A stretch of 64,000 nt of DNA from Spirochaetia bacterium (GCA_963692905.1 OY843583.1:21703-85702), one strand, 5' to 3'. Counted from the first letter of the stretch, positions 2,080-64,000 are shown. The notes: generated by a model not told the origin, from the letters alone. Numbers and translations: made by a program.

Positions 2080-2099
2080 CCTTACCACATTGATATCTC

Positions 2100-3659: not shown

Positions 3660-4788
3660 GGCTATTGGTGCGCCACTGCTGGAGAAAATTGGCGGCGAAA
3701 CTCTGGAATTCACCATTGTGGATGGCCTGGCGAAGCTGCAGCATAAACTGCTGGTAAAAATAGAGATTATGATAGGTGAGTAGCATAGGCGCCAACATCT
3801 CTCGACATTTAAAGAGATGTCGCAGGTAGGCGCGAGAGTAATTTGCGCATACCTTACAGGTACAACGGCTATCAAGAGATTGATTGGCGCGGCGATGCGC
3901 AGCATGTTTAAGATTAAACATGCCCTGACTGGTACAAGCTACACCATTGCGGGCCACCCTAGTAGGATAGACGCAGTCAAAAATATCAATGCCTTGGCTC
4001 ACCGCCTCTAGGATATAATCGGGAGTGCCTATCCCCATCACATAACGCAATTTATCTGTGGGAAGCAGAGGAGCAGTATGCGCTAGTATTTCATAAAAAC
4101 TGCTCGGTGACTCCCCTACTGAAAGCCCGCCTATGGCATAGCCGGCCAAATCCAGCTCCACCGTGTGCTGTGCGCTGACAGTACGCAATTCCGGATAGAG
4201 GTTTCCTTGAATAATCCCAAAGAGCTGGCCATGATATTCCGAGCTCTCTGAGTACCTCTCTCTCTGATGGTTGCGACTGGTCCGTAGCCAATTGACAGAA
4301 CGCCATACTGCCGCCTCCGCCTCTTGATATTCAATACCGGGAGGAGTGCATTGATCCAAGGGCATAATAATATCACTTCCCAGCGCCTGTTGAATATCAA
4401 TAATCTGCTGAGGGGTAAAATAATGCTTACTTCCATCAATGGGCGAGCGTATGCATACTCCCTCCTCATATATGGTGGTAAGCTGTGCAAGTGAGAATAT
4501 TTGGTAGCCGCCCGAATCGGTTAGGATATTCTGCTCCCAGTTCATAAAACTATGCAGGCCACCTAACTCTTGAATAGTACGGTGTCCAGGTTGCAGATAG
4601 AGATGGAAACTGTTGGCCAGCAGCATCTCGTAGCCTAGCTTATGGAGCTCATGGCTCTCTAGGCCGCGAATACTAGCACGAGTAGCAACCGGTATAAAGG
4701 CTGGCGTATGGAGTGGACCGTGTGCTAAGGTTACCATAGTGGTCCGGGCATCACTCTCTTTGTCATTTGCGGTGATGGTGATCTGCAT
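3652..4788 (-). CDS. tgt: Queuine tRNA-ribosyltransferase.
   Basis: TAHGPLHTPAFIPVAT N-terminus and the zinc site CTCKVCANYSRAYLRHL. The LTDSGGYQ motif is present. Confidence 0.85.
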   Translation of the reverse strand: MQITITANDKESDARTTMVTLAHGPLHTPAFIPVATRASIRGLESHELHKLGYEMLLANSFHLYLQPGHRTIQELGGLHSFMNWEQNILTDSGGYQIFSLAQLTTIYEEGVCIRSPIDGSKHYFTPQQIIDIQQALGSDIIMPLDQCTPPGIEYQEAEAAVWRSVNWLRTSRNHQRERYSESSEYHGQLFGIIQGNLYPELRTVSAQHTVELDLAGYAIGGLSVGESPSSFYEILAHTAPLLPTDKLRYVMGIGTPDYILEAVSQGIDIFDCVYPTRVARNGVACTSQGMFNLKHAAHRRANQSLDSRCTCKVCANYSRAYLRHLFKCREMLAPMLLTYHNLYFYQQFMLQLRQAIHNGEFQSFAANFLQQWRTNSHE

Positions 4789-43624: not shown

Positions 43625-44467
43625 ATGAGTAGAGACTGGCGGATCTGCCTATGGCCAATCGGACTATTGTTTACCTTTGGTAGCACCCTGCTTGATGCGG
43701 AGACTAACCATACTATTCGCAAAGGTGAGACCATTTATTCATTGGCGCGCAAATATCAAACAACTCCCGAAGCCATTATCTCGGTAAATCGTATAGGAGA
43801 TCATACCAATATCTCGGTGGGGGCACAGTTGGTTATACCGCAGTATCACACAGTAGCCAAAAATGAAACCTACTATAGTATCGCCAAACGCTATGCAATC
43901 ACCGTGGGGCAACTTCTGGCACTTAACTCGCGATCCTCTTCAAATATATTGGGTATAGGTGAGCGCTTGGTAGTGCCGGTAGAGAGCGCTACTCTCCCCT
44001 CCGCGGCAGCGGCATCTCCGCCTCCTCCCCCGGAAGTGGGTGGCAGCGCGCCAAAGCCGGTTCCCGCGCCTGTTGCTTCGCCAGTTTCTACTAGGTTGGC
44101 ATCCACCACTTCCGATAACTTCTGGCCACATAGCGGCAAGCGGGGAGAGATGAAGGGCAAGTTTCCCGCAGTAACCTTTGAGGCACAGGCGGGGGATGCG
44201 GTACGGGCGGTATATGATGGACGGGTAATCTATGTGGGTAATAATCCCCATTTTGGCCGAGTAGTTTTTGTTCAGGCCTCTACGGGGCACATCTATATCT
44301 ATGGCGGACACGATAGTGTAGAGGTGCAGGTGGGATCGTTGGTGTCAGTAGGCAGTGTAGTAGGACGAGTAGGACGTCCAGGGGCGCATCAACAGCATCC
44401 CCGGATCTATTTTAGTGTGTGGCATGCCAATCGCTTTGTCGATCCTCAGCTGGCGCCTAGGGGATAG
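43625..44467 (+). CDS. LysM-domain M23 family metallopeptidase.
   Basis: Two LysM modules (IRKGETIYSLARKY, AKNETYYSIAKRY), a Pro-rich linker and a C-terminal M23 domain. Confidence 0.75.
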   Translation: MSRDWRICLWPIGLLFTFGSTLLDAETNHTIRKGETIYSLARKYQTTPEAIISVNRIGDHTNISVGAQLVIPQYHTVAKNETYYSIAKRYAITVGQLLALNSRSSSNILGIGERLVVPVESATLPSAAAASPPPPPEVGGSAPKPVPAPVASPVSTRLASTTSDNFWPHSGKRGEMKGKFPAVTFEAQAGDAVRAVYDGRVIYVGNNPHFGRVVFVQASTGHIYIYGGHDSVEVQVGSLVSVGSVVGRVGRPGAHQQHPRIYFSVWHANRFVDPQLAPRG

Positions 44468-44494: not shown

Positions 44495-45355
44495 ATGTAT
44501 TCTCAGGAGGAGAACTATATACCACCCAGCTACTACGAAGAGATGAGCCTTCATCCTCCATTGAACGCTGATGAGGAGCAGCGCTATTTTAAGCAGTACC
44601 GTATTGCGAAGCGGCGTCTAGAGCGCTGTCGACGCGCAGAACGGGCAACAATGGAGCATCAGCATGCCAAACTGCACCGCCTGCTTTTTATCTCCAATTT
44701 GCGTTTGGTAGTTTCAATTGCTAAAAATTATGCCAACCGGGGGATCAGTTTTCATGATCTTATCAATGAGGGCAGTATTGGGCTTCTGGAGGCTGTTGAG
44801 CGCTTTGATGTGGGGCGAGGTTTGCGTTTCTCTACCTACGCCACCTGGGGGATACGGCAGGCGATCATTAAATTAGTAAGTGATCACGCTAACTCAATAC
44901 GACTGCCGCTACACGCGCTCTATTTGCTTAAGAAGTACCGTATGGCCACCAATGAACTAACACAGAAGAATGGACGCCTTCCTAATATTACTGAGGTAGC
45001 AGCATTACTTAATGTTTCACAAAAATGCATTCAGCGGGTGTTGAATGTAACTCAGAATAATGAGTCAGAAGAGTATCATCAATCAAATAGCACGCCCGGC
45101 GACCTCAGTGATCTCCCCGATTCTCGGGGGCGACTATCTCCGGCACTGCCCGATGCACTAGCCAAAATGGTAATTAACAATGCCTTTAAGACCCTCACTG
45201 AGCGGGAGTGTTATATACTGAAAATGCGCTTTGGTCTGGAAGGCTATTGGCCGCATACCTTTGATGAAATTAGCAATCAAATTGGCGTGACCCGCGAGCG
45301 AGTGAGGCAGATTCAAAAGCGGGCGCTGGAGAAGCTACGGGCAACAGTAACTTAA
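44495..45355 (+). CDS. Sigma-70 family RNA polymerase sigma factor (group 2/3, RpoS-like).
   Basis: Regions 2.1-2.4 (DLINEGSIGLLEAVERF, FSTYATWGIRQAI), region 3 and a region 4 HTH (FDEISNQIGVTRERVRQIQKRALEKLR). Confidence 0.75.
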   Translation: MYSQEENYIPPSYYEEMSLHPPLNADEEQRYFKQYRIAKRRLERCRRAERATMEHQHAKLHRLLFISNLRLVVSIAKNYANRGISFHDLINEGSIGLLEAVERFDVGRGLRFSTYATWGIRQAIIKLVSDHANSIRLPLHALYLLKKYRMATNELTQKNGRLPNITEVAALLNVSQKCIQRVLNVTQNNESEEYHQSNSTPGDLSDLPDSRGRLSPALPDALAKMVINNAFKTLTERECYILKMRFGLEGYWPHTFDEISNQIGVTRERVRQIQKRALEKLRATVT

Positions 45356-45933: not shown

Positions 45934-47208
45934 GTGGTTGGCATAGATAACATTGCGCTCTATGTGCCCCGCCAACGTATCCTTTTAGAACAGCTAGTTA
46001 AGCATCGGGCAGAGAATAATCCGGCACTTGTTCGGGCATTGCGTTTGGCTATTCGTAATACTGGCCAGCAGTCTATCCGCTTTCCTTACCTGTGGGAGGA
46101 TACCGCCACCATGTGCGCAGAAGCTGCCCGCCAGCTTTTAACCCATCCCAATGGTTCGCTAGACGCCGCCAGCTATAACAGTAGATCGCTGCGTTATCTA
46201 GCGGTAGGCACTGAAAGCGGCCTGGATCAGGCTAAGGCGCTGGCCTCCTACACTGAGGGGATGCTCCAGCGCTCGGGCATTGCCATTCCTCAGACCATCT
46301 CCACTTTTCAGGTACAACAGGCCTGTGCCGGCGGTTCAGTGGCGCTAGTAAGCATTGCGGCGCTGCTTGAAATGAGCGCTGCCGAAGAGGAGTGCGGATT
46401 AGTTATCTGTTCTGATATTGCCCATTATGAGGCGGGGAGCGCGGCAGAGATTACGCAGGGCGCCGGAGCGGTAGCGCTTTTAGTAAGCAAACAACCGCGT
46501 CTCATTGAATTGGATCTCTCGGCACTAGGACATGCCTCGCAGGATGTAGATGATTTTTTTCGCCCTCTAGGGGCAACTAGCGCACGGGTTAAGGGCCGCT
46601 ATTCGGTTGACTGCTACATTGAAGCATTGCGGATAGCCTTTGCCGATTATTGCCGTTCAGTGCAACGCCCACCTCATGAGTTATTGCAGGAGACAGAGCT
46701 CTTTGTACTGCATAACCCCTTCCGCAATATGGCTGAACAGGCCCTCCATAACCTGCTGCGCCATGACGGTAGACTCTCCTCCTCAGAGATTGAACGCTAT
46801 CTTGCTGAGCGGGGCTTTGAGGCGGCGGTGGCACCTACTGCAGAGGTGGGCAATATCTATTCTGGCTCAACCTACCTTTCATTAGCCTTCCTACTTAAAG
46901 AGCGTTGGCAACATTGGGGCAATGACATTGTCGGTAAGCGTATTTTAATATGCTCCTACGGCTCTGGTAATACCATGCTACTTATTCCCGGCCGGGTTGC
47001 CAAAGCGGCCCCAGCACTCTTGGCTGAATGGGATATTGAGCAAATACATAATGATTATGTAGATGCCACTCTGGAACAATACCAGCAGTGGATGGAGTCT
47101 CCCTTCGGCCGGCCCCTTACTGCCTCCTCTCCGGCAGCTATTCACAATAATCATTATTATCTTTCTAGAATACGTGACGATGGCTACCGTGAATACCAGC
47201 ACCAATAA
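45934..47208 (+). CDS. mvaS: Hydroxymethylglutaryl-CoA synthase.
   Basis: HMGS motifs VGIDNIALYVP, EITQGAGAVA, NIYSGSTYLSL and CSYGSGN, with a C-terminal YYLSRIRDDGYREY. Confidence 0.8.
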   Translation: MVGIDNIALYVPRQRILLEQLVKHRAENNPALVRALRLAIRNTGQQSIRFPYLWEDTATMCAEAARQLLTHPNGSLDAASYNSRSLRYLAVGTESGLDQAKALASYTEGMLQRSGIAIPQTISTFQVQQACAGGSVALVSIAALLEMSAAEEECGLVICSDIAHYEAGSAAEITQGAGAVALLVSKQPRLIELDLSALGHASQDVDDFFRPLGATSARVKGRYSVDCYIEALRIAFADYCRSVQRPPHELLQETELFVLHNPFRNMAEQALHNLLRHDGRLSSSEIERYLAERGFEAAVAPTAEVGNIYSGSTYLSLAFLLKERWQHWGNDIVGKRILICSYGSGNTMLLIPGRVAKAAPALLAEWDIEQIHNDYVDATLEQYQQWMESPFGRPLTASSPAAIHNNHYYLSRIRDDGYREYQHQ

Positions 47209-48277
47209 GAAGATCCCTTTTCGTAAGGCTGAGCATCTAATGCTCTGTCTTGATGATCGCTATCAAGTAGAGTCCGACATATCTACCGGCTTTCAAGAGC
47301 TTCAATTTGTACATAGTGCCTTTCCCGAATCGACTATCTCAGAGATAGATACCTCCACTACTTGGTTGGGCTACAAGTTGGCAATGCCTTTTTTTATCTC
47401 GCCCATGACTGGAGGTTCAGAGGATGGTTATCGCATAAATCGCGATCTAGCCCAGGCTGCGCAGAAGGCGCGGGTGGCAGTAGGTATGGGCTCTATACGG
47501 GTACTTTTTAGCTATCCGGAGGTGCTGAATCACTTCCAGATTAAGAAATTTACCCCTGATGTGCCACTTATTGCCAATATCGGCGCAGTACAACTTACCC
47601 AATATTCGCCGGCCGATATTATCCAGATGGTTCAGCGACTAGAGGCCGATGCGCTCTCGTTGCATCTCAACTGCGGTCAGGAGCTCTTCCAACCACGGGG
47701 CGACAGGGATTTTCGCGGCATAAAGCGGGCTATAGTGCATCTCCGCCAGAAGAGCCCCTTCCCACTGATAGTCAAGGAGACCGGCTTTGGTATCGATCCC
47801 GCCACTATTCGTTGGCTATTGGCAGAGGGCATTGATTTTGTAGATGTAGCGGGTGCCGGAGGAAGTAATTGGATACGAGTAGAGAGCTATCGTAGTGATG
47901 GCCCGCCGCAGCAGGATAATGTATTTAATAGCTGGGGAATTCCTACCGCCTATATTTTAGGTGCACTTAAAGATTGTGCGGCGCATCTTATTGCTTCTGG
48001 TGGCATACGGAATGCGCTAGATATAGCCAAAGCATTGGCGTTAGGCGCCCATCTCACTGCCAGCGCGCTCCCGCTTATCCGTACTCTTTCGCAATCGGGA
48101 AGCGAGGGGCTGGTGGCCTATATTGCCCGATTGCGTCATACCTTGCTCTCTATTATGGTACTCACCTCTTGCCCTACCATTGAGGCGCTGCGTCAACGCT
48201 CATTGATTAAGAACTCCCGGTTTGTAGAGCAGGTGGCGCAACTCTCCTCCTTCAGCGAATATGCCGAGAGTAGATAG
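47180..48277 (+). CDS. fni: Type 2 isopentenyl-diphosphate delta-isomerase (FMN-dependent).
   Basis: IDI-2 motifs FFISPMTGG and GGIRNALDIAKALALGA in a TIM-barrel. The start was trimmed to MATVNT and overlaps the mvaS end. Confidence 0.8.
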   Translation: MATVNTSTNKKIPFRKAEHLMLCLDDRYQVESDISTGFQELQFVHSAFPESTISEIDTSTTWLGYKLAMPFFISPMTGGSEDGYRINRDLAQAAQKARVAVGMGSIRVLFSYPEVLNHFQIKKFTPDVPLIANIGAVQLTQYSPADIIQMVQRLEADALSLHLNCGQELFQPRGDRDFRGIKRAIVHLRQKSPFPLIVKETGFGIDPATIRWLLAEGIDFVDVAGAGGSNWIRVESYRSDGPPQQDNVFNSWGIPTAYILGALKDCAAHLIASGGIRNALDIAKALALGAHLTASALPLIRTLSQSGSEGLVAYIARLRHTLLSIMVLTSCPTIEALRQRSLIKNSRFVEQVAQLSSFSEYAESR

Positions 48278-49547
48278 CTCCCCAGTGCAATCCCTCCCGC
48301 GCTCCTTTCGTAAACTCGCTATTGAGGAGCGACGGCAGCTATTACAGAGCACCTTTGATTATCCCCTGACCGCTGATCCAATAGCCCTAGCCGATGTGAT
48401 GGTAGAGAATGCCATCGGCTATCGACAGATACCTATGGGAGTTGTAACCTCGCTATCTGTTGATAAGGTAACCCGCACCATTCCCCTAGCTACTGAGGAG
48501 CCCTCAGTAATAGCCGCCCTTCAATATGGAGGCGCTATTCTAACGGCACATGGCGGTGTGGCCACTACGGCATCCGCGCCGCTTATGGGTGCCCAGATAT
48601 TTTTAGAGGACTGTCAGCATCAAGCGCTGGTGGCGCTTCAAAAGGCGCATGCTGATTCTCTCCGTTTATTCAACAAGACCTTTCATAGCCTACAGCTACG
48701 TGGCGGTGGGCTGCGAGATCTCCAATATCGCTGGATTGGTCTTGATGGACAATCGCTGACTCGCATACTTGTGGTGGAGTTTTGGGTAGATGTGCGCGAT
48801 GCATTGGGGGCTAATCGTCTTAATAGCGCCGCCGAGGCGCTGGCGTCCCATTTTGCTACTATTGCCGGTGGTCGGCGACTTTTTGCTATTCTTTCTAATG
48901 CTGCCGAACGCCGTTTGGTTACTGCTACCTTTACCCTGCCTATTGCCGCACTGCGTAGCCCGGCGCGCCCTCCCGAGGAGATTGCTAGAGCTATAGTAAC
49001 GGCCTCGGACATTGCTCAGCACGACCCTCGACGAGCTATTACCCACAACAAGGGAATCATGAATGGGGTAAGCGCGGTAGCGCTAGCCACCGGTAATGAT
49101 ACTCGCGCTCTAGAGGCGGCGGTACATGGTTATGCCTCTCGAGATGGCCATTGTCGAGGGTTGTCTCTCTATCAGGTGAGCGGCACTATGTTAACCGCTA
49201 GGCTTACTATGCCTCTTCCTTTAGCACTAGTGGGTGGTGCGGTAGCTTTCCAGAGTGATAGCCGAGCTGCACTGCGCATGCTACAGGTGCAATCCTCCTC
49301 GGAGCTCTCAGCAGTAGCTGCGGCGGTGGGGCTTACCCAAAATTTTGCGGCGCTCTTAGCATTGGTAGGAGTGGGTATCCAAACGGGTCACATGCGGCAG
49401 CATGCGCTACGCTTGGCGTGGCAGGTGGGAGCGCGTCAGGTGCATTTGACTGAAGTGGCTAATGAGCTGCATCGCCGTCGACGCTATACCATTGCTGAAG
49501 CCAAGAAAATATATAAAGATATTCTTAAGCATGAAGCCCATGACTAA
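48261..49547 (+). CDS. mvaA: Hydroxymethylglutaryl-CoA reductase (class II-like).
   Basis: HMGR catalytic-domain motifs IPMGVVTSL, EEPSVIAA and DAMGAN-like LGANRLN. Length 428 aa. Confidence 0.75.
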   Translation: MPRVDSSPVQSLPRSFRKLAIEERRQLLQSTFDYPLTADPIALADVMVENAIGYRQIPMGVVTSLSVDKVTRTIPLATEEPSVIAALQYGGAILTAHGGVATTASAPLMGAQIFLEDCQHQALVALQKAHADSLRLFNKTFHSLQLRGGGLRDLQYRWIGLDGQSLTRILVVEFWVDVRDALGANRLNSAAEALASHFATIAGGRRLFAILSNAAERRLVTATFTLPIAALRSPARPPEEIARAIVTASDIAQHDPRRAITHNKGIMNGVSAVALATGNDTRALEAAVHGYASRDGHCRGLSLYQVSGTMLTARLTMPLPLALVGGAVAFQSDSRAALRMLQVQSSSELSAVAAAVGLTQNFAALLALVGVGIQTGHMRQHALRLAWQVGARQVHLTEVANELHRRRRYTIAEAKKIYKDILKHEAHD

Positions 49548-50541
49548 GCCGGTTCGCTGCCAACTTTCACCCAGTTTAGCGCTCATAAAATATTGGGGGA
49601 AACGGGGGAGGCAACATATTCCCGCCACTACCAGCATTGCTACCTCGTTAAATGCGCTACATAACTCGGTTACTGTAGCTATTGCCTCTAAAGATGAGCT
49701 ACAGCTCAATGGCCAGCAGCTATCAGCTGTAGTGGTGAAGAAATATTATCTCCCCTTTCTTGATCATCTAAGAGCGCATCTTCGGGTATCATGCCATTTT
49801 GCTATTGATATGCTCCTTAATTTTCCGTTGGCTGCCGGATTGGCCAGTTCCTCTAGTATCTTTGCCTCGCTCACCTTAGCATTGACTTCCCTCTGCAATT
49901 ACCGAGGATCTCCGGCTACGCTTTCATCGCTGGCGCGCCAGGGATCTACTTCGGCGGCGCGTGCTATCTTTGGGGGCTTTGTGATCTTCCCAGCGGGGGC
50001 ACGGGCCGCGCGCCCGCTCCCCCTACCCCACCATTGGAGTGAATTGCGAATTATTGTGGCAATTACCGACCACAGTTACAAGCGGGTAAGCACTCGTCCA
50101 GCCATGAGTGTGGTACAGCGAAGCTCTTTTGCCTATCGCGGATGGGTATGGAGCGCCCAGAAAATTGCGACAACCGCCCGCGCCGCTCTGCGGGAACACA
50201 ACCTTGAGAAGTTGGGTGAGGCTATGCGAGCTAGCTATTTGGGTATGCATGCTACCATGTTGGCGGCTCGTCCCCCCATTCTCTATTGGAATGAGAATAG
50301 TATTAAGTTAATTCATCTCTGTGAGGATTTACGTCTTAGGGGCATTGAAGCCTGGGAGACAATGGATGCCGGTCCTCAAGTAAAAATTCTTACCACTCAA
50401 CAACATGTACCGCGCATTATGCGAGAAATAGAGGGCCTGAAGGGGGTAAAATCAGTGGTAAGCGAGCTAGGAGTTGCCCCACAAATAGAGCGTCTAGCAA
50501 CAGTGGCGCCCAAGGAGCTTGTCGAGCTGGTATGCCGATGA
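49531..50541 (+). CDS. mvaD: Diphosphomevalonate decarboxylase.
   Basis: PSLALIKYWGKR signature and a GHMP-kinase fold. The start was trimmed to MKPMTKP and overlaps the mvaA stop. Confidence 0.8.
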   Translation: MKPMTKPVRCQLSPSLALIKYWGKRGRQHIPATTSIATSLNALHNSVTVAIASKDELQLNGQQLSAVVVKKYYLPFLDHLRAHLRVSCHFAIDMLLNFPLAAGLASSSSIFASLTLALTSLCNYRGSPATLSSLARQGSTSAARAIFGGFVIFPAGARAARPLPLPHHWSELRIIVAITDHSYKRVSTRPAMSVVQRSSFAYRGWVWSAQKIATTARAALREHNLEKLGEAMRASYLGMHATMLAARPPILYWNENSIKLIHLCEDLRLRGIEAWETMDAGPQVKILTTQQHVPRIMREIEGLKGVKSVVSELGVAPQIERLATVAPKELVELVCR

Positions 50542-51515
50542 AGAGACGACTTGCGGTGCCGGCCAACCTGCTTCTCTTTGGTGAATATACCATTTTAGAT
50601 GATGGCGGAATAGGCATTAGCTGCGCGACCGAACCCTATATGAGCGCAGAGATTATTCCCGCGCCGGAATTGATTATTGAGAGTCATATGCCTCAGGGAA
50701 GACTTATCTATCGGCCTTTCTCAGAGCCGACATATTCTGATACAACAGCAAATTTTTTAGTTCAGCTCACCGACGCCCTTATAGAAGTACTAGAGCTATC
50801 CGAGAAGGCGCAACAATCGGGTATCCGTATAGTGGTAGATAGCCGCCCCTTCTTTAGCAATGATGACACTAAATTGGGGCTTGGCTCTAGCGCGGCATTG
50901 ACGGTGGCCCTCAGTGCGGCACTCATGATAGTCTATTATGATCATGATATAAGCGACCGTGAGGCCTTAATGCCGGTGGCGGTCGCCGCGCACCGCAGCG
51001 CACAGGGCGGGCGGGGAAGTGGCTATGACATTGCCGCCTCGCTTCACGGAGGATGGGGATATTTTCATGGTGGATTGCGTCCTAAATGGGAGCCTTGCCA
51101 CCTGTCATGGATGCCTCATCTTGCGCTGTGGTTCAGCGATAATGCAGTGCTTACTCCACAGGCAATTCGACGCTACTACCTCTGGGCACATCGCAACTCA
51201 CGCGCTCACCAGGAATACCTACATATTAATGCGCAGGCAATCAGACAGTTAGTGCGAGCACGAGTATGGTCTGAAGCGCAGCCAGTCGCGCAGCAGCTGG
51301 CCGACATCTCTGTCGAATTGGGGCGTCAAATTGGAGTACCAGCGACCATACCTTCTCAACTGCAGCAACAGCTAAATCAGTTATCGGAGAGGGGCGACTA
51401 TCTATGCAAAGCACTAGGCGCCGGTGATGAGCTCTTTCTTATTGCCTCATCTCAACCTAGTAGCTACGGTCAAAGGGTAACATTAGCCTCCCAAGGGCTA
51501 CATTGGCAATCCTAA
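50532..51515 (+). CDS. Phosphomevalonate kinase (GHMP family).
   Basis: LLLFGEYTIL and GHMP motif LGLGSSAALTVAL. Assigned by its position between mvaD and mvk. Confidence 0.65.
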   Translation: MPMKRRLAVPANLLLFGEYTILDDGGIGISCATEPYMSAEIIPAPELIIESHMPQGRLIYRPFSEPTYSDTTANFLVQLTDALIEVLELSEKAQQSGIRIVVDSRPFFSNDDTKLGLGSSAALTVALSAALMIVYYDHDISDREALMPVAVAAHRSAQGGRGSGYDIAASLHGGWGYFHGGLRPKWEPCHLSWMPHLALWFSDNAVLTPQAIRRYYLWAHRNSRAHQEYLHINAQAIRQLVRARVWSEAQPVAQQLADISVELGRQIGVPATIPSQLQQQLNQLSERGDYLCKALGAGDELFLIASSQPSSYGQRVTLASQGLHWQS

Positions 51516-52600
51516 AAGGGAGAGGACATGGAAAGTTACTTCTCTTTGGTGAACATGTCATATTACATGGGTATCCTGCGCTAGGTATCGGGGTTCCTCC
51601 CAGTTTGGAATTACGGGCTCGTTCCCTAGCTACTCCGGGCGTAGTATTTAGCGATGCATTACAACAGGGGTTAAAGCGCTACCCTCATCTTCTCCAACAA
51701 TTTGAAAAGGCATTTTTAGTAGCTGGTCGACGCTGGTGGGGCGCTAGGGGAGTTTCTGTTACTGTTCAGAGCAGTGTGCCTATAGGGCGGGGAATGGGAA
51801 GTTCATCCTCACTTTCAGTAGCTGCGGCTCATCTGGAGCTCTACGGTAAATTCTCTCTCTCAGAGCTTACCGCACATCAGAGAGGAGAGATTTGGAAGCG
51901 GGCTCATCATTTTGAGAGAACCTTCCACCATACCCCTTCGGGAATCGACACGGCCTTAGCGCTTGATGCCCCACTCACTATTTTTCGACCAAATTACCCG
52001 GTTAGAGCAGAGAATAGCGCTTATTCTTGGAGAGGAGAGAGCTCTCCCACTGAGAGAGCATCACTTAATACCGAAAATGCTATATTGGAGGCGGCAATAG
52101 TTATCATTGTGCTGCCCCGCTCTAAAGGGGCAGCAGAGCTTATTGGCAGATTGCGCCACCAAGTGAATCAGCGTCCGGCTACTCAGCGCATTATACATCG
52201 CTTGGGATCACTTACCATACAGGCCGTCGACCACATTGTGGCTGGATTCCCCAGCGCTTCAAAGCGCTCTCAGTGGTTAGAAGAATTGGGTCAATATGCC
52301 AACCAAGCCCATCAATTACTTACTGCATTGGAGCTCAATGACCCACTAGGTGATCAGCTACTGACGCAGGCTCGCCGCTGGGGGGCGCTAGGCGGTAAAA
52401 TAAGCGGCGCCGGCGCCGGAGGCGCGCATTGGCTTATTTTTGACAATAACACTGCCCAGCGCCGGGCGCTGGCGGCTATCTACCGCCAGCTACGACAGCT
52501 GTCCCACGCTCGTAGACTAAGCTATCAGCTTTACAGCGGTCGTATAACTGGCAGCCATTGGCAAAACTTCCGCGAGCGACACAAGGCGCCATCTCCATAA
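51503..52600 (+). CDS. mvk: Mevalonate kinase.
   Basis: KLLLFGEHVILHG N-terminus and GHMP motif PIGRGMGSSSSLSVA. Confidence 0.75.
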   Translation: MAILKGRGHGKLLLFGEHVILHGYPALGIGVPPSLELRARSLATPGVVFSDALQQGLKRYPHLLQQFEKAFLVAGRRWWGARGVSVTVQSSVPIGRGMGSSSSLSVAAAHLELYGKFSLSELTAHQRGEIWKRAHHFERTFHHTPSGIDTALALDAPLTIFRPNYPVRAENSAYSWRGESSPTERASLNTENAILEAAIVIIVLPRSKGAAELIGRLRHQVNQRPATQRIIHRLGSLTIQAVDHIVAGFPSASKRSQWLEELGQYANQAHQLLTALELNDPLGDQLLTQARRWGALGGKISGAGAGGAHWLIFDNNTAQRRALAAIYRQLRQLSHARRLSYQLYSGRITGSHWQNFRERHKAPSP

Positions 52601-56960: not shown

Positions 56961-58058
56961 ATGAGTGCACCAGCCTCAGATAAGAAGCCACCAGCTCCCC
57001 GCTCCCCGGGCGCATCAGGTACCAAAGACTATACCCACGCCTTTGATCAGGCCGAGTTGGATGAGATCTATCGCACCATTCAAGCTAGAATACGGACCCA
57101 ACGGAGTAAACAGAGCAGCCTCAAAAGCAGTATGCTTGAATCCGCAGCCCCTAGAAAGAATAGCCGCACCCTGCCGCTCATGGTGATTATTCCCTCAATT
57201 CTCATTGCTTTGGTAAGTCTCTTTCTGCTTCTTGAGCGATTTACCGAGAGTCAAATACTCTCTCGTCTCTTTCCCAATTTACGAGACACCAGCGAAGCGC
57301 CTAGTAATGTGAATCAAAATCAGGTAATCCGGAGAATTCAAGATGAGGCGCAGCAACAAATTGCGGATCTACAGATCGCCCTCCTCAACCAACAGCGTAC
57401 CTTGGAATATGTAGAGGTAGAGCAGGAGCGCATAGTCGTCGATCCCAATGATGCACAGCAACAGAGAAACGCTGAGGAGCTTCAGAGAAGCGCTGAGGAG
57501 CTTCAGAGAGGACAGGAGGCACTCCAAGCTGCGGTGCAGCAGCAACGTCAGTTGGAAAGTGAACTCTCCCAACTTGAAAGTCAGGCGGCGCGCTCATTTT
57601 CGGATTACAATGCGCTTGCGGTGCAGCAGGAGCGTCTGGATCTCTTGTTGAATCAATATCTCTCACTTACCACCAATATCCGAGATGCCATGCAGGCCAA
57701 TAATTCTAGCGCAGTGGAGCGAGAGGTGGGACGACTCCGAAGCTATCTCAATACCTTTTCCGCTAGCGAGGGTGGGATATTGCAACCGCTCTTTCTGAGT
57801 GGCGGTAATTTTATTGCTGCAGCTGATGCCTATCTTGAGGCGCTTCGCACCAGCGATCGTCTTGAAGAGGCAGCAGAAGCGACCGCAGCTTTAGATACGC
57901 CAGTAGCTCCGGAGGGCGGAGACGCTCCCTTAGGGGCCCGAGTAGCGGAGTTGGAGCGCACTATTGAGGGGCTGAGCGCTGAGATAACCAACATCCGTCT
58001 CCGAAAAGATATTTGTGAGGATGATCTCACCCTCTGTAAGCGCGATCAGGTAAATTAG
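56961..58058 (+). CDS. Hypothetical single-pass membrane protein with a long extracytoplasmic coiled-coil and a tandem 7-aa repeat (AEELQRS/AEELQRG).
   Basis: Lys/Arg-rich N-terminus, a TM helix (LPLMVIIPSILIALVSLFLLL) and Gln/Glu/Leu-rich heptad-like sequence. It is followed 13 nt later by the cyclase gene. Confidence 0.5.
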   Translation: MSAPASDKKPPAPRSPGASGTKDYTHAFDQAELDEIYRTIQARIRTQRSKQSSLKSSMLESAAPRKNSRTLPLMVIIPSILIALVSLFLLLERFTESQILSRLFPNLRDTSEAPSNVNQNQVIRRIQDEAQQQIADLQIALLNQQRTLEYVEVEQERIVVDPNDAQQQRNAEELQRSAEELQRGQEALQAAVQQQRQLESELSQLESQAARSFSDYNALAVQQERLDLLLNQYLSLTTNIRDAMQANNSSAVEREVGRLRSYLNTFSASEGGILQPLFLSGGNFIAAADAYLEALRTSDRLEEAAEATAALDTPVAPEGGDAPLGARVAELERTIEGLSAEITNIRLRKDICEDDLTLCKRDQVN

Positions 58059-58071
58059 GGGAAGATAGCCA

Positions 58072-59784
58072 ATGAAGATACGGAGTAGATTAATGCTGAG
58101 TATTGTCCCGCCAGTGATTGCGCTTTTTGTGGTAAGCGGTATCATTGGCTTCTCAGTCAGTCGTACCGGTCTCTATAATCTCCAGCGGGATTCCTTGCGC
58201 TTTAAGGCGCAGCTACTGAGAAACCAGCTAGTCGCACAATGGAATCTTCTGGTGGATTTTTCACTCTTCTCTGAACCGGGATATATACAGACCGCACAGG
58301 AGGCCATACAGGACTTTGCCACCACCATCCTCAAACCTCCGGCCGATGATGCGGGCGAAGATGCCACAAGTTCTCAACTTATCTTTGCCGTCATTTCCGA
58401 AGCAGAGAGTGAATTGCGCTCCCTTGCCATGAGCACCGATCCCAATCTGGTCATTTCGCAAGAAAATCTTGCGACCCTCTTTGCTGAGGGTGACAATGAG
58501 CAGGGGGAGATACCATTTCACACCGCAAGGATAGGAAGAGAGCAATATGCCTATACCGCCTTCTATTTTGAACCCTTTCGCTGGACGATATTTGTGGGCG
58601 AACGGGTGCGAATATTTAATGTTAGTGTGCGTATTGTACAGCAGGTATTGCTTATTACCACCCCACTTTTTATCATTGTGCTCCTTATTATCATCTTTAT
58701 TCTCTCTCAGAGCTTAACCCGTCCACTCAGTAACATGGCCAAAAGCGCCCGTACCATTATGGCTGATACCCTAAACATCAAGGCCGATATTCCCTATGAG
58801 TATAATGATGAGGCAGGAACCCTAGCACTTACCTTTAACTCCATGTTCACGGAGTTAGATGGCACCTATGAGGACTTAAAACAGTATGCCTTTGAGAGTG
58901 CTGTAGCACAGCGCCAAGAGAAACGAATCCGCACTATTTTCCAAAAATATGTACCGCAAGATCTTATTAATCGCTACATTAAAAACCCTGAATCGCTCTT
59001 AGTGGGAGAAGATCGTCCCATGGCGGTACTTTTTAGCGATATTCGCAGTTTTTCCGCTATTTCGGAAAAAATGAAGCCAGATGAGCTGGTGCGTTTTCTT
59101 AACCGTTACTTAGCGCAGGTTGTTGAGGTGATTACCAACGCCGAGGGGGTAGTCGATAAGTTTATTGGTGATGCCGTGATGGCGCTCTTTGGCGCGCCGG
59201 TGGCCCACAAAGATGATGCGCTTCGGGCGGTAGAGTCGGCACTGAAGATGCTAAACATTGTGGAAGCGCTTAATAAGCAGGCAGCTCGCGATCATGTTCC
59301 CACCTTTAAGATTGGCGTGGGTATCCATGCCGGTATCGCCACAGTAGGGAATATTGGAAGTGATAAAAAAGTAGAGTACACCGCAATAGGAGATACTGTA
59401 AATCTTGCCTCTCGCCTTGAGGGACTGTGCAAGCAGTATCAGCAGCCACTTATTATTTCAGACGCAGTAGGCGAAGCGGTGAAGAATCATCATCAGCTGC
59501 GCTTTATTGATAAGGTGATAGTGAAGGGAAAGAGTGATACCACCCAGATCTTCACGGTGCTCAGAGAGAAGCAGCCGGATACCCAGGCGCTGCGCCTCTA
59601 CCATAGCGGCATCGCGCATTACTATAAGGGGGCCTTCCAAGAGAGTCAGCGTGAGCTTAAAAAAGCGCATCAGCAGGGGTTGGATGATGCCCTTACCCAG
59701 CAGTTTTTGGAGCGCACGGCTGAGTTGATACAGCATCCACCACCGCCACAATGGAATGGCGCGGTGCCCTTAGAGAGTAAATAG
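58072..59784 (+). CDS. Membrane-bound class III adenylate/guanylate cyclase with a periplasmic sensor region and a HAMP domain.
   Basis: Two TM helices flank a periplasmic domain of about 150 aa. A HAMP domain is followed by the CHD motifs AVLFSDIRSFS and KFIGDAVMALFGAP. Confidence 0.8.
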   Translation: MKIRSRLMLSIVPPVIALFVVSGIIGFSVSRTGLYNLQRDSLRFKAQLLRNQLVAQWNLLVDFSLFSEPGYIQTAQEAIQDFATTILKPPADDAGEDATSSQLIFAVISEAESELRSLAMSTDPNLVISQENLATLFAEGDNEQGEIPFHTARIGREQYAYTAFYFEPFRWTIFVGERVRIFNVSVRIVQQVLLITTPLFIIVLLIIIFILSQSLTRPLSNMAKSARTIMADTLNIKADIPYEYNDEAGTLALTFNSMFTELDGTYEDLKQYAFESAVAQRQEKRIRTIFQKYVPQDLINRYIKNPESLLVGEDRPMAVLFSDIRSFSAISEKMKPDELVRFLNRYLAQVVEVITNAEGVVDKFIGDAVMALFGAPVAHKDDALRAVESALKMLNIVEALNKQAARDHVPTFKIGVGIHAGIATVGNIGSDKKVEYTAIGDTVNLASRLEGLCKQYQQPLIISDAVGEAVKNHHQLRFIDKVIVKGKSDTTQIFTVLREKQPDTQALRLYHSGIAHYYKGAFQESQRELKKAHQQGLDDALTQQFLERTAELIQHPPPPQWNGAVPLESK

Positions 59785-59850
59785 CCTCCCTCATCATCTG
59801 AAGATACGAAGCTCGCTACGGTGAGGCGTCCGCACCGGCGCTACTATTGC

Positions 59851-59952
59851 TCACTTCCCTTTCTCTGGAGTGATTGGCGATAGTGCTGTAGGAGCTTTTC
59901 TCTCCGCGGCAATTACCGTCGGTGCTGCCTTGGTTCGGAAGGCTGAGTGGGC
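59851..59952 (-). pseudogene. Degenerate fragment of the valS 3' end (copy A), a footprint of segmental duplication.
   Basis: Translates to ...LEAHSAFRTKAAPTVIAAE, matching the valS C-terminal LEAHSAFRSKAAPTVIAAEE. The 58-nt core ctccgcggcaattaccgtcggtgctgccttggttcggaaggctgagtgggcctccag is shared with 61270-61326 and 62714-62770. Confidence 0.7.
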
Positions 59953-60102
59953 CTCCAGGAGAGGAGTATCCCCTAAGCGAGCGCAATACACTATTTTCAC
60001 ATATAATAGCTCTATATTCAAAAATTTCCTTGTAAAAACAACAAAACTATATTGCACACTATTAAGTTATGCTATACAATAACTTATATACAAGGATCTC
60101 TT

Positions 60103-61116
60103 ATGAAATTTTTACGATATATATGCATCGCATTATTGTTTGTGGAAGCTACTGTAGTGGGAGCGGCGCCCCTGCATGATGCGGTGGTCTCCCAAAACCG
60201 CCCCCGTGTGGGGCGACTTTTAGCGCAGGGTGCTGATCCCAACCAGCATGATGAGGCGGGCTTCACCCCCCTGCATTGGGCTATCCGCGATAGACAGTTT
60301 CTAATGGTGGAATTGCTTCTAGATGCCGGCGCCGATCCCACTTTGGCCACCGCCCCACCTGAGGAGAGTGGCTATAGCCCCCTCCACTTTGCCGCCTTTG
60401 AGGGAAACGCGGCCATTGTGCAGCTCCTGTTGGATCAGGGCGCCAACATAAACCGGCGCAGCAAACTGGGCGACACCCCATTACATGTCGCGGGCGCCCA
60501 GGGCCATAGAGAGGTGCTGGAATTGTTGCTGGAGCAGGGCGCCTCGGTGGCCCTGCAAAACGAGGCGGGGCAACGGGCCGCCGAGGTAGCCACCGAGGAG
60601 CTTCAGGAGCTTATCCCCACGAATGCGCTAGGGTGGTTCTTGCGCCCCCTAATAAGCTATGGCTATAACTTTTTCGCACCTTCGGAGCTCTTCTTGGCTC
60701 GCTCCTCATTGCAGCTGGGCGCCCAGCTACAGGTCCGCTGGGGTATCTTTCCGTTATTTCCTGAGAGCTGGATTGTCGATCTTCGTCTGAGGGGGACGGC
60801 GCTCTCCCGGGAGGGCGCTCCCAATCCTCAATTCTCTCTCTCACTCACCACTACCATTCCATATATACCTATTTTTAATGGATATGTTGCTAATGCAGAT
60901 GTGGTTTTTGAGTGGTATTTTTTTAGATTGGGCGCAATATTTAATCTCACCACCTTGGGATTGTCCCTAGCAGTTAGTCCGGGGATTAGTCTGACCATTG
61001 AGGCCATCAACAGTACCCTCTTTGCTGAAGTTGAAATAGTAGCACCAGTCAGCGGCGGTGGTGGTGAACAAGGCATTATACTCGTAGTAGGCTATGCCTA
61101 TCAGTTTCGGCTCTAG
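60103..61116 (+). CDS. Secreted ankyrin-repeat protein with a C-terminal domain resembling an outer-membrane beta-barrel (paralog 1).
   Basis: RBS AAGGATC before MKFLRY. Signal peptide, three or four ANK repeats (GFTPLHWA, GYSPLHFA, GDTPLHVA) and a C-terminal 170 aa with alternating hydrophobic and aromatic residues ending GYAYQFRL. Confidence 0.7.
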   Translation: MKFLRYICIALLFVEATVVGAAPLHDAVVSQNRPRVGRLLAQGADPNQHDEAGFTPLHWAIRDRQFLMVELLLDAGADPTLATAPPEESGYSPLHFAAFEGNAAIVQLLLDQGANINRRSKLGDTPLHVAGAQGHREVLELLLEQGASVALQNEAGQRAAEVATEELQELIPTNALGWFLRPLISYGYNFFAPSELFLARSSLQLGAQLQVRWGIFPLFPESWIVDLRLRGTALSREGAPNPQFSLSLTTTIPYIPIFNGYVANADVVFEWYFFRLGAIFNLTTLGLSLAVSPGISLTIEAINSTLFAEVEIVAPVSGGGGEQGIILVVGYAYQFRL

Positions 61117-61159
61117 AGCAGATAAGAACAATAGGGTGCCGGTGCTGGCATCCATCATC

Positions 61160-61326
61160 CAGCAGCAGATAGCATGCCTTCGGCATTCTAAAGAGTAAGT
61201 GTCTCTCACTTCATCTTTTCTAGGTCGGCCAGCAGGCGCTGCAGAAGCTTCTCTCTCTCCGCTAATTGGAGCGCCCGCTGCTCCTCCGCGGCAATTACTG
61301 TCGGTGCTGCCTTGGTTCGGAAGGCT
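61160..61326 (-). pseudogene. Copy B of the valS 3' end plus its downstream flank. It encodes ...LLQRLLADLEKMK-stop but is detached from valS.
   Basis: About 90% nucleotide identity to 62596-62770. The reading frame is truncated at the duplication junction (gggcctccag). Confidence 0.75.
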
Positions 61327-61483
61327 GAGTGGGCCTCCAGGGGAGGGATGTCCCCTAGGTGAGCGCAATACACTATTGCACATATAATAGCTCCATATTC
61401 AGAAATTTCCTTGTAAAAATAACAAAACTATATTGCACACTATTAAGTTATGCTATATTGTAACTTATAGAAAAGGATCTATT

Positions 61484-62560
61484 ATGAAATTTTTAAGATA
61501 TAAGGTATTACGATACCTATGCATCACATTATTGTTTATGGAAGCTACTGTGGTGGGAGCAACACCCCTGCGTGATGCGGTGGTCTCCCAAAACCGCGCC
61601 CGTGTGGGGCAACTTTTAGCGCAGGGCGCTGACCCCAACCAGCATGATGAGGCGGGCTTCACTCCCCTGCATTGGGCTATCCGCGATCCGCAGTTGCCAA
61701 TGGTGGAGCTACTTCTAGATGCCGGCGCTGATCCCACTTTGGCCACCGCCCCTCCCGAGGAGACTGGCTATAGCCCCCTCCACTTTGCCGCCTTTGAGGG
61801 AAACGCGGCCATTGTGCAGCTCCTGTTGGATCAGGGCGCCAACATAAACCGGCGCAGCAAACTGGGCGACACCCCATTACATGTCGCGGGCGCCCAGGGC
61901 CATAGAGAGGTGCTGGAATTGTTGCTGGAGCAGGGCGCCTCGGTGGCCCTGCAAAACGAGGCGGGCCAACGGGCTGCCGAGGTAGCCACCGAGGAGCTCC
62001 AGGAGCTTATTCCCACGAATGAGCTAGGGTTCTTGCGGTTCCTAGTAAGCTATGGCTATAACTTTACGGCACCTTCAGAGCTCTTCTTGGCTCGCTCCTC
62101 ATTGGAGCTGGGCTTCCAGATGCAGGTCCGCTGGGGTGGGGATTGGTCGCTTTTTGCTGAAAGTTTGACCTTTGATTTTCGTCTGAGGGGGCAGGCGCGC
62201 TCCCGGGAGGGTGCCACTAATTATTTTTCTATATCTGATTCTCAGCCTAATTCTGGATTCTCTCCTTTATTCACCACAACTATTCCATATTTTGCATTTC
62301 TTAATGGATATGTTGGTAATGATGATGTGGTTTTTGAGTGGTATTTGGCTAAAATTGGATTCAGCGCAATTTTAAGGTCCGACAATCAGACTACATTTAT
62401 GCTCGTACTTAACCCGGGGCTTAGTCTGACCATTGAGGCCATCAACAGTACCCTCTTTGCTGAAGTTGAAATAGAATTCCTCGACTTAACCTCTGTCACA
62501 GGTCCATCCTCCCTCAACACTATACTCGTAGTAGGCTATGCCTATCAGTTACGATTCTAG
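61484..62560 (+). CDS. Secreted ankyrin-repeat protein with a beta-barrel-like C-terminal domain (paralog 2), ending in the beta-signal-like ...GYAYQLRF.
   Basis: Over 90% identical to paralog 1 through the ANK region. The C-terminal domain is diverged and carries an insertion (FSISDSQPNSGFSPLF). Terminal Phe. RBS AAAGGATC. Confidence 0.7.
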   Translation: MKFLRYKVLRYLCITLLFMEATVVGATPLRDAVVSQNRARVGQLLAQGADPNQHDEAGFTPLHWAIRDPQLPMVELLLDAGADPTLATAPPEETGYSPLHFAAFEGNAAIVQLLLDQGANINRRSKLGDTPLHVAGAQGHREVLELLLEQGASVALQNEAGQRAAEVATEELQELIPTNELGFLRFLVSYGYNFTAPSELFLARSSLELGFQMQVRWGGDWSLFAESLTFDFRLRGQARSREGATNYFSISDSQPNSGFSPLFTTTIPYFAFLNGYVGNDDVVFEWYLAKIGFSAILRSDNQTTFMLVLNPGLSLTIEAINSTLFAEVEIEFLDLTSVTGPSSLNTILVVGYAYQLRF

Positions 62561-62639
62561 AGTCGACCGGAATGGTGATACCACACTCTCATCCTGCAGC
62601 AGATAGCATGCCTTCGGCATTCTAAAGAGTAAGAGTTTC

Positions 62640-64000
62640 TCACTTCATCTTTTCTAGGTCGACCAGCAGGCGCAGCAGAAGCTTCTCTCTCTCCGCTAAC
62701 TGGAGCGCCCGCTGCTCCTCCGCGGCAATTACTGTCGGTGCCGCCTTGCTTCGGAAGGCTGAGTGGGCCTCCAGACGCTCCCGTAGCGCTGCTAAGCGCC
62801 TTTGGCACTGACTTAATTCCTGCTGCTGACGCTTCATAAGGGGGGCTATTTCCAGAGATTGCGGGAGGGCTACCACTACCTCGCACATCTGCCCCGCTAT
62901 ACCTATCCCCTGGCCTACTGGCTGCGGGGCCGAGAACACCCTAAGTGTGGTGTGGGTAAAAAACTCAATAAGCCCCCGCTCCTCTTTCAGCCAACGGGCA
63001 AGTTCTTCAGCTTGGCTTAAGGCACCAACTACTACCTGGGCCCTAAGCTCCTGCTTAGGGGCTATGGAAAGCTCGCTACGCAGACGTCGCAGAGAGCCTA
63101 CTACATCCTGAAGCAGTGCCATGTGGCGCACGCTTTGCAGGTTGACCCGCTGCGGCCTTTGGGTGGGTTGGGGAGCAATAATCAGCGCCTCATAGCGAGG
63201 AAGGCTGAGAGCCGACACTATCTCTGACAGATGGAGATAGAGCTCCTCGCTGATGAAGGAGAGAAAGGGATGCATAAGGCGCACTATCTCCTCCAAAAGA
63301 ATACAGAGATGGCTGCTGCTGGCGGCTCCTGGATCTTGGCGCTGAGCATATTTGCTATACTCAACATACCAATCGCAGAAATCATACCAAAAATAGGTGT
63401 AAATACTATGCGCCGCCTCGCTAAAGCGATAATGGGCCATGTGGCGCTGTACCTCACCAATAGTCTGATTATGACGATGATAAATCCAGCGATCAATCAT
63501 GTTGTAGCTCAATTCCTCAGACTGTTGCAGTTGGCTCTCGGTAGCTTGCGAAATGATGAAACGGGCGGCGTTCCATACCTTGTTGCAGAAGCGAGAACCC
63601 ACCAAAAAATCCTCCTTAGCCAAGAGAATATCCTGTCCTCCAGCCATCAAATAGGTAAGGCTAAATTTAAGGGCATCGGCGCCGTACTCATCTATTATCT
63701 CTAAGGGATCGATGCCATTACCTAATGATTTAGCCATCTTTCGTCCAGTCTTATCGCGTACTAGACCAGTAAGGTAGATGTTGGTAAAGGGCGCCTTACC
63801 CGTGAACTCCAGTCCGGCCATAATCATCCGCGCCACCCAGAAGAAGATAATGTCGTAGCCAGTAATGAGGGTAGTGGTAGGATAGTAATGCTCAAGATCG
63901 CTGGTTGATGAGGGCCAACCCATGGTGCTAAAGGGCCATAACCATGAAGAGAACCAGGTATCCAGCACATCCTCATCCTGGGTGAGGGCGCTATCCTGTG
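62640..64000 (-). CDS. valS: Valyl-tRNA synthetase, C-terminal part. The N-terminus lies beyond the window end.
   Basis: KMSKS-region KMAKSLGNGIDP, the anticodon-binding domain and a C-terminal coiled-coil (…LLLRLLVDLEKMK). The ORF runs to the window edge. Confidence 0.85.
   Translation of the reverse strand, partial: QDSALTQDEDVLDTWFSSWLWPFSTMGWPSSTSDLEHYYPTTTLITGYDIIFFWVARMIMAGLEFTGKAPFTNIYLTGLVRDKTGRKMAKSLGNGIDPLEIIDEYGADALKFSLTYLMAGGQDILLAKEDFLVGSRFCNKVWNAARFIISQATESQLQQSEELSYNMIDRWIYHRHNQTIGEVQRHMAHYRFSEAAHSIYTYFWYDFCDWYVEYSKYAQRQDPGAASSSHLCILLEEIVRLMHPFLSFISEELYLHLSEIVSALSLPRYEALIIAPQPTQRPQRVNLQSVRHMALLQDVVGSLRRLRSELSIAPKQELRAQVVVGALSQAEELARWLKEERGLIEFFTHTTLRVFSAPQPVGQGIGIAGQMCEVVVALPQSLEIAPLMKRQQQELSQCQRRLAALRERLEAHSAFRSKAAPTVIAAEEQRALQLAEREKLLLRLLVDLEKMK

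Follow-up and report, generated by a model that had tools for sequence, protein, structure and literature searches.

How two putatively secreted ankyrin-repeat proteins with β-rich C-terminal tails came to lie side by side between a cyclase gene and valS in a spirochete, and on which side of the outer membrane their ankyrin repeats would work, are the questions raised by a locus near the end of a 64,000-nucleotide stretch from a Spirochaetia bacterium (GCA_963692905.1, OY843583.1:21703-85702). This whole 64-kb stretch is referred to here as the window; self-comparisons cover all of it, and positions are whole-stretch coordinates. On balance we favor the view that the two genes, called ank1 and ank2, are tandem paralogs of a lineage-specific spirochete family, whose orphan tails would form small outer-membrane barrels, whose ankyrin (ANK) domains would lie in the periplasm, and whose duplication history would be the one proposed below. 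The genes and the regions upstream of them are:

60103-61116, plus strand: ank1, 337 aa, ATG start at 60103; putative signal peptide at aa 1-21, four ANK repeats at aa ~22-165, β-rich C-terminal domain at aa ~179-337 (60637-61113)
61484-62560, plus strand: ank2, 358 aa, ATG start at 61484; putative signal peptide at aa 1-26 with a 5-aa duplication, four ANK repeats, β-rich C-terminal domain at aa ~183-358 (62030-62557)
59959-60102, plus strand: upstream region of ank1, with a promoter-like site at about 60051-60080 (consensus promoter scan) and an AAGGA ribosome-binding site
61341-61483, plus strand: upstream region of ank2, with a promoter-like site (consensus promoter scan) and a ribosome-binding site

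The initial annotation had described a head-to-tail pair, and both genes are indeed intact open reading frames (ORFs) at these positions, with products that share 76% identity. The ATG of each is preceded by an AAGGA ribosome-binding site, and the two upstream regions are about 91% identical. Each protein contains four ANK repeats scoring 105-108 bits against Pfam Ank (cut-off 21.1; E about 1e-31) and 87-88 bits against Ank_2. The gathering thresholds of the ankyrin families (PF00023 / PF12796) are exceeded by both proteins and also by a homolog on L082 (sample ERZ19489113), which together with L083 (sample ERZ25070167) makes up the pair of related metagenomic contigs used as outgroup. A Sec signal peptide can plausibly be read by inspection on each Ank protein, with the layouts MKFLRY-ICIALLFVEATVVGA/AP and ...ATVVGA/TP in the window and ...ATLVEA/AP in L082 (a slash marks the putative cleavage site, namely VGA/AP, VGA/TP and VEA/AP), and ANK repeat 1 would stand at the very start of the mature protein. 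We rejected the upstream TTG codons at 60052 and 61433 as starts because the ATGs come after the AAGGA site, and this site is also conserved in L082. A lipoprotein reading was likewise rejected: the Cys at position 8 (ank1) or 13 (ank2) has neither a preceding hydrophobic core nor a lipobox-like context. Unlike ank1, ank2 has an imperfect tandem duplication of 15 bp in the n-region of its signal peptide (61487-61516, KFLRY-KVLRY).

The pair belongs to an array in which fragments of valS recur, bounded by a cyclase gene on the left and by valS itself on the right:

58072-59784, plus strand: HAMP-adenylate/guanylate cyclase gene (Pfam Guanylate_cyc 1.9e-23, HAMP 1.7e-07), left flank of the array
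59851-59901, minus strand: putative left part of valS relic R0, decayed; stop-codon motif TCACTTC, then degraded codons and a 29-bp deletion
59902-59958, minus strand: right part of valS relic R0, a well-preserved 57-bp valS fragment reaching to the shared junction
61117-61154, no strand: spacer after the ank1 stop, not alignable with the spacer after ank2
61155-61340, minus strand: valS relic R1 (middle), comprising the last 44 codons with their stop and 51 bp of 3' flank
62561-62639, no strand: intergenic region between the convergent ank2 and valS, of which 62589-62639 is the flank copied in R1
62640-64000, minus strand: 3' half of the functional valS, with its stop at 62640-62642, continuing past the window end
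62640-62774, minus strand: valS source segment, the part duplicated in R1 and R0

Self-BLASTN recovers head-to-tail repeats spanning 59902-62774 in units of 1382 and 1434 bp (59902-60815 against 61284-62211 at 89%; 60831-61340 against 62257-62774 at 80%), and no further copies of the ank unit in the window. The valS-like pieces in front of each ank gene do derive from valS, as had been proposed: R1 is 96% identical to 62589-62774, with 5 differences in 135 coding bp, and the right part of R0 is 95% identical to valS (62718-62774) and 98% identical to R1 (61284-61340). A decayed relic had been placed at 59851-59952; the match at 59902-59958 is secure, whereas that at 59851-59901 is marginal, with 63-70% identity to the valS tail and z = 2.6 against shuffles. 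R1 retains an intact 55-aa ORF on the minus strand (61206-61373), in which a GTG start and 10 new codons precede the last 44 ValS codons with 3 amino-acid changes; this intactness is probably due to gene conversion from valS, not to function. R0 and R1 end at an identical junction, ...GGGCCTCCAG/G, beyond which the ank upstream region begins. A valS fragment cannot come to lie ahead of the first ank copy through one duplication, so that at least two events are needed, as the initial annotation had argued. Its further proposal, that valS was captured repeatedly, does not survive the comparison of the relics, since their common breakpoint points to a single capture followed by re-amplification of the unit.

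Divergence between the two copies is distributed as a mosaic, the most conspicuous element of which is the following tract:

60369-60569, plus strand: ANK repeats 3-4, 100% identical over 201 bp to 61765-61965

An identical run of 201 bp on an 89% background has a probability of about 1e-8, which indicates gene conversion. In sliding windows, identity amounts to 85-95% over the promoter, signal peptide and first ANK repeats (68-70% in two windows over the 15-bp signal-peptide indel), to 35-93%, mostly 50-80%, over the C-terminal domain with its several in-frame indels, and to 95-98% between R1 and valS, while the spacers right after both ank stops cannot be aligned. Synonymous divergence (dS) and the ratio of nonsynonymous to synonymous divergence (omega), estimated by the Nei-Gojobori method from the two sequences ank1 and ank2 and thus not resolving individual sites, are 0.14 (0.07 in codons 81-160) and 0.18 for the ANK part, 0.36 and 0.63 for the C-terminal domain overall, 0.67 and 0.51 for its predicted loops, and 0.24 and 0.76 for its predicted strands. 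Judged from this pattern of sequence divergence, the C-terminal halves are old, and the ANK part and R1 have been homogenized recently; R1 is neutral DNA and, without such homogenization, would show the same decay as the left part of R0, and the contrast between ANK and C-terminal divergence would exist because gene conversion homogenized the ANK part.

The divergence of the C-terminal domains had initially been taken as a sign of diversifying selection on them, which in its explicit form would be positive selection on surface loops in place of age combined with gene conversion elsewhere. Amino-acid identity is indeed ~95% in the ANK part and lower, ~61-69%, in the C-terminal domain, most of the indels between ank1 and ank2 lie in or beside predicted loops, and the last 17 codons have an omega of 1.33; the insertion reported for one of the domains is also real, as ank2 has a 10-aa insertion besides smaller indels. 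Omega nevertheless stays below 1 in the domain as a whole and in loops and strands taken separately, which do not differ significantly from each other (Fisher p = 0.53). Moreover, dS (0.36-0.67) is elevated in the C-terminal domain as much as nonsynonymous divergence, and the lack of any synonymous change over 201 bp of the ANK part is a gene-conversion signature, so that positive selection on the loops appears rather unlikely. A more trivial explanation, that reads from a single ank copy were assembled into an array, has a negligible probability. Artefactual duplications are expected to be near-identical, whereas the ank copies show several in-frame indels and differ by 11% in the 5' part and by 20-50% in the 3' part, neither ORF is disrupted, both show purifying selection, and both proteins are recorded on a single 1,881,732-bp contig. 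Because the copies differ locally by 4-50%, assembly duplication is very unlikely as the source of the array.

The arrangement that preceded the array can be approached through the outgroup contigs, the coding DNA of which is 73-77% identical to the window, with 72-74% amino-acid identity to its ValS over the C-terminal 442 aa and about 74% nucleotide identity to its cyclase gene in both L082 and L083. On L082 as on L083, the HAMP-cyclase gene converges directly on valS across a gap of 103-160 bp with nothing in it. L082 has an ank-type gene beyond valS, upstream of it and divergent, which encodes a putative signal peptide, four ANK repeats and a ~160-aa β-rich tail. Its product is 45% identical to the ank1 and ank2 proteins over aa 1-190, the first predicted β-strand included, and the proximal ~75 bp, containing the promoter and ribosome-binding region, are conserved between this homolog and both window copies. 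Homology of the C-terminal domains would follow from the common architecture and the homologous N-terminal 190 aa. Because the cyclase gene and valS are adjacent in both relatives and the L082 ank gene lies beyond valS, the arrangement in the window is the derived state. The valS of L082 is called as three pieces (1353-4042; 83, 243 and 467 aa), pointing to frameshifts or assembly errors in that contig, and L083 has a coverage of 2.13x according to its contig name. Among the matches listed, the best named ValS relatives are metagenome-assembled genomes of Spirochaetia, Spirochaetales and Treponema at 39-46% identity, and the genome belongs to a poorly sampled spirochete lineage.

We propose that the ancestral order, seen in the relatives, was a cyclase gene convergent with valS, followed by a divergent ank gene on the far side of valS. 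A tandem duplication of the valS-ank block would have been followed by deletion of the valS body from the cyclase-proximal copy, creating the junction and R0 and fusing the valS tail to the promoter region of ank. The second ank gene and R1 would then have arisen when the valS-tail repeats recombined unequally. Later gene conversion, the pattern of which is visible and the mechanism of which we infer, would have kept the ANK repeats and R1 near-identical, with the barrel parts retaining their old divergence. The model predicts a third ank gene upstream of valS, just beyond the window. A duplication involving valS, as envisaged by the initial annotation, thus stands as far as the tandem paralogs and relics are concerned, but the original order was cyclase-valS with the ankyrin homolog on the other side of valS. 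Direct head-to-tail repeats with one junction and an over-long tract of identity, the marks of tandem duplication with gene conversion, are all present. The locus resembles tandem duplicates in concerted evolution: its paralogs stand head to tail with mosaic identity and a long identical tract, and pieces left over from the flanking gene mark the unit junctions. Its duplication and relic architecture is ordinary, textbook genome dynamics.

The C-terminal domain, an orphan of ~160-185 aa, is less ordinary. The window proteins end in YAYQFRL and YAYQLRF, and the last nine residues of the three proteins (V-G-Y-A-Y-Q-L-R-F, V-G-Y-A-Y-Q-F-R-L and, in L082, I-H-F-S-I-G-Y-A-L) are hydrophobic at positions 1, 3, 5, 7 and 9 from the C-terminus, as is classical for the ends of outer-membrane proteins. 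The β-signal for the β-barrel assembly machinery (BAM) that had been noted in the window pair is therefore present by inspection, with a terminal aromatic or hydrophobic residue and alternate hydrophobics, in both proteins and in the divergent L082 protein as well, with the reservation that the BAM of this host may differ in its preference. The hydrophobic moment at 180 degrees, measured for β-structure against shuffles, stands out in the three C-terminal domains, at z = 3.5, 3.5 and 4.8, as opposed to 0.6-0.8 in the ANK domains. Charged residues make up 11-15% of the C-terminal domains versus 18-21% of the ANK part; Lys is almost absent from the C-terminal domains, and aromatics account for 13-17%.

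AlphaFold2, run on the ank1 tail with a two-sequence alignment, predicts an all-β meander with 8-9 strands of 10-16 residues, each with one hydrophobic and one polar face. The best Foldseek matches of this model are the OmpA transmembrane domain (E = 7e-5), NspA, Ail and OmpX, with template modeling scores (TM-scores) of up to 0.58; a single-sequence AlphaFold prediction of full-length ank2 was uninformative, with a predicted local distance difference test score (pLDDT) of 45. Mapped onto the model, the larger indels between ank1 and ank2 (2-10 aa) fall in or beside predicted extracellular loops (L2 +10; L3 +2, +3 and -2; L4 +4), and 1-aa indels occur at the start of the first strand and beside the periplasmic turn T1. 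From the model and the sequence statistics together, we consider it fairly likely that the C-terminal domain is an integral outer-membrane barrel, which would probably be small, 8-stranded and inserted by BAM via its C-terminal strand. The initial suggestion of a β-barrel-like C-terminus is plausible in view of the periodicity, the low charge and the fold matches to outer-membrane barrels, but it is not proven by a low-confidence model and no family match.

Compared with the small 8-stranded outer-membrane barrels (the OmpA transmembrane domain, OmpX/Ail, NspA, OprF-N, PagL, OmpW and four from Treponema pallidum), which include its best fold matches, the domain is alike in size, in its predicted amphipathic 8-strand meander, in its variable alternate loops and in a C-terminal strand with an aromatic or hydrophobic end. 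It is unlike them in matching no profile, in being more hydrophobic, and in standing C-terminal to a folded soluble domain. For the 8-stranded barrels of T. pallidum, low sequence similarity and variable extracellular loops are typical (PMC8407342). The curated families of this class (OmpA_membrane, OMP_b-brl, OmpW, Ail/Lom) gave no profile match to the C-terminal domain, and a PDB profile search with this domain gave no sequence match. When 1.84 billion representative proteins were searched exhaustively with HMMER, ank1 itself and one low-complexity chance match were all that emerged; a word-indexed search with the C-terminal domain returned nothing, a weak negative as the query's own protein was missed too. 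Full-length searches retrieved generic ANK proteins, none covering the C-terminus, and both ank1 and ank2 are singletons in a collection of 15 billion proteins. Among 30 ANK loci found when the Joint Genome Institute (JGI) metagenomes were scanned with the three-protein alignment, not one has a β-rich tail. The fusion of ANK repeats with this orphan tail is unusual and confined to this lineage, with three members found. Three of the JGI contigs (L088, L091 and L098) encode ~315-aa secreted all-ankyrin proteins with signal peptides and PLHFAAFE-type patterns that lack the β-rich tail.

If the barrel is even-stranded, both its termini would lie in the periplasm, and all predicted strands come after the ANK domain. 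For this reason the ANK module would be periplasmic, serving to bind proteins while tethered to the outer membrane on its inner side, and only the variable barrel loops would be exposed at the surface. The ankyrin repeats had been proposed to be displayed or anchored by a barrel; tethering to the outer membrane is the part that we favor, whereas display at the surface is less likely, given a small 8-stranded model with a periplasmic N-terminal domain. Envelope-resident ankyrin proteins have been described elsewhere in bacteria. Pseudomonas AnkB is a periplasmic ankyrin protein. So are Bdellovibrio Bd3460, which inhibits the predator's own endopeptidases (PMC4686830), and Rickettsia RARP-1 (bioRxiv 10.1101/2022.02.23.481736). 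The Ank proteins would share with these three a Sec-exported ANK domain that acts within the bacterial envelope and not in a host cell, but differ in that no partner gene (toxin, enzyme or other) lies next to ank1 and ank2. To our knowledge, none of the three is fused to a C-terminal β-barrel. OmpA-type proteins also combine an outer-membrane barrel with a periplasmic domain in one polypeptide, in the reverse order, with the barrel first and a peptidoglycan-binding domain after it, whereas the ANK domain comes first here. The proposed layout also recalls that of the treponemal Tpr/MOSP proteins, which have a periplasmic N-terminal (MOSP-N) part and a barrel built from the C-terminal part; these barrels are much larger and unrelated, and the periplasmic module of the Ank proteins would consist of ankyrin repeats. 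For full-length treponemal Tprs, a bipartite membrane topology is supported (PMC8407342).

Other readings of the tail place the ANK domain differently. Were it a soluble β-barrel or β-sandwich of the lipocalin or YceI kind, or a barrel that targets cargo for type 11 secretion, the Ank proteins would be free in the periplasm or secreted. We regard this as unlikely: a soluble fold sits poorly with the scarcity of charged residues and of Lys, the positive hydropathy, predicted strands of 10-16 residues, transmembrane barrels at the top of two independent fold searches, and a C-terminal hydrophobic pattern ending in F or L that is kept even in the divergent L082 protein. Type 11 secretion has been described for Proteobacteria, not for spirochetes, and Pfam shows no similarity of the C-terminal domain to known type 11 cargo domains. 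The layout of signal peptide, N-terminal functional domain and C-terminal β-barrel is also that of type Va autotransporters, and a miniature autotransporter or another export device could display the ANK domain on the surface to engage a eukaryotic host. Autotransporter β-domains, however, are 12-stranded, measure about 250-300 aa and contain a pore-filling helix. The Ank tail, at ~160-180 aa, is about 100 aa too short; with ~8 strands in ~170 aa and no linker helix, it is not expected to translocate its N-terminal part. There is no Pfam Autotransporter (PF03797) match, the C-terminal model has no helix after the ANK domain, and the best fold matches are 8-stranded barrels with a lumen that cannot pass a polypeptide. 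Display is further opposed by the lack of an N-terminal strand that would make the ANK domain a surface loop, and periplasmic ankyrin proteins are documented in Bd3460 and RARP-1; surface display for host contact is thus improbable. A last possibility, quite unlikely in our estimate, is that the three members among ~15 billion proteins represent a new lineage-restricted family of outer-membrane barrels that either exports ANK domains to the cell surface by a route unlike known type V secretion or makes them a new kind of periplasmic tether to the outer membrane in spirochetes, for example for a partner in the envelope or the periplasmic flagellum.

Several observations weigh against the favored reading of tandem paralogs with outer-membrane barrels and periplasmic ANK domains. 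The model of the ank1 tail is of low confidence (pLDDT 48.7; predicted TM-score, pTM, 0.37), and its fold matches should be taken as suggestive only. The grand average of hydropathy (GRAVY) of the C-terminal domains is +0.2 to +0.6, and classical outer-membrane barrels are less hydrophobic than this. Pfam and NCBIfam gave no match to the C-terminal domain at E <= 10 except for MipA/OmpV (PF06629) in ank2 only, which at E = 0.04 and 14.5 bits remains below the family cut-off of 24.2; the other matches in these databases are generic ANK models and, far below cut-offs, Legionella Ank effector models. Profile comparison by hhalign detects no similarity between the L082 tail and the window C-terminal domains. 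As for the history, the sequence of events has been reconstructed, the third ank copy that it predicts would fall outside the window, and the 66 bp after the cyclase stop (59785-59850) do not resemble the valS 3' flank significantly (z about 0). The neighboring genes, finally, point to no partner or function for the ANK domain: the cyclase gene and valS are uninformative in this respect because they occur in the same order in relatives without an ank gene between them.

Further observations concern the wider neighborhood. Immediately before the cyclase gene, a 365-aa coiled-coil membrane protein is encoded at 56961-58058 (plus strand), with a 99%-identical twin (P0127, 3 substitutions) on a contig of the same length as that of ank1 and ank2, 1,881,732 bp; the twin represents another recent copy at a different place in the genome or else a further version of the assembly. 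At ~54150, right after rny, the window ceases to be syntenic with its closest relative, contig L081 (1-9829; rny cluster at least 90% identical), and here L081 continues with gatCAB and ABC-transporter genes and the window with a β-propeller-like gene and then the coiled-coil/cyclase/ank block. A complete mevalonate-pathway operon, syntenic in L081, occupies 45934-52600 (plus strand) and encodes 3-hydroxy-3-methylglutaryl-coenzyme A (HMG-CoA) synthase, a flavin mononucleotide (FMN)-dependent dehydrogenase (IDI-2-like), HMG-CoA reductase, diphosphomevalonate decarboxylase and two GHMP kinases; a complete mevalonate pathway is notable for a spirochete outside Borrelia. Just upstream of it lie genes for a LysM-LysM-M23 peptidase (43625-44467, plus strand) and a sigma-70 family sigma factor (44495-45355, plus strand).

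The practical impact of these findings is limited, coming as they do from one poorly sampled lineage and weak structural evidence. The locus nevertheless provides a worked example of how relics of a housekeeping gene can date and order duplication events, and it shows that gene conversion can be mistaken for differential selection. In the literature searched, no description was found of ankyrin repeats fused to a small outer-membrane barrel. Few integral proteins are known from the outer membranes of spirochetes, where new families of barrels are difficult to detect by sequence. If the proposed architecture is true, the ankyrin-barrel fusion would add to the small number of known cases in which the ANK repeats of bacteria function within the envelope rather than in a host cell.

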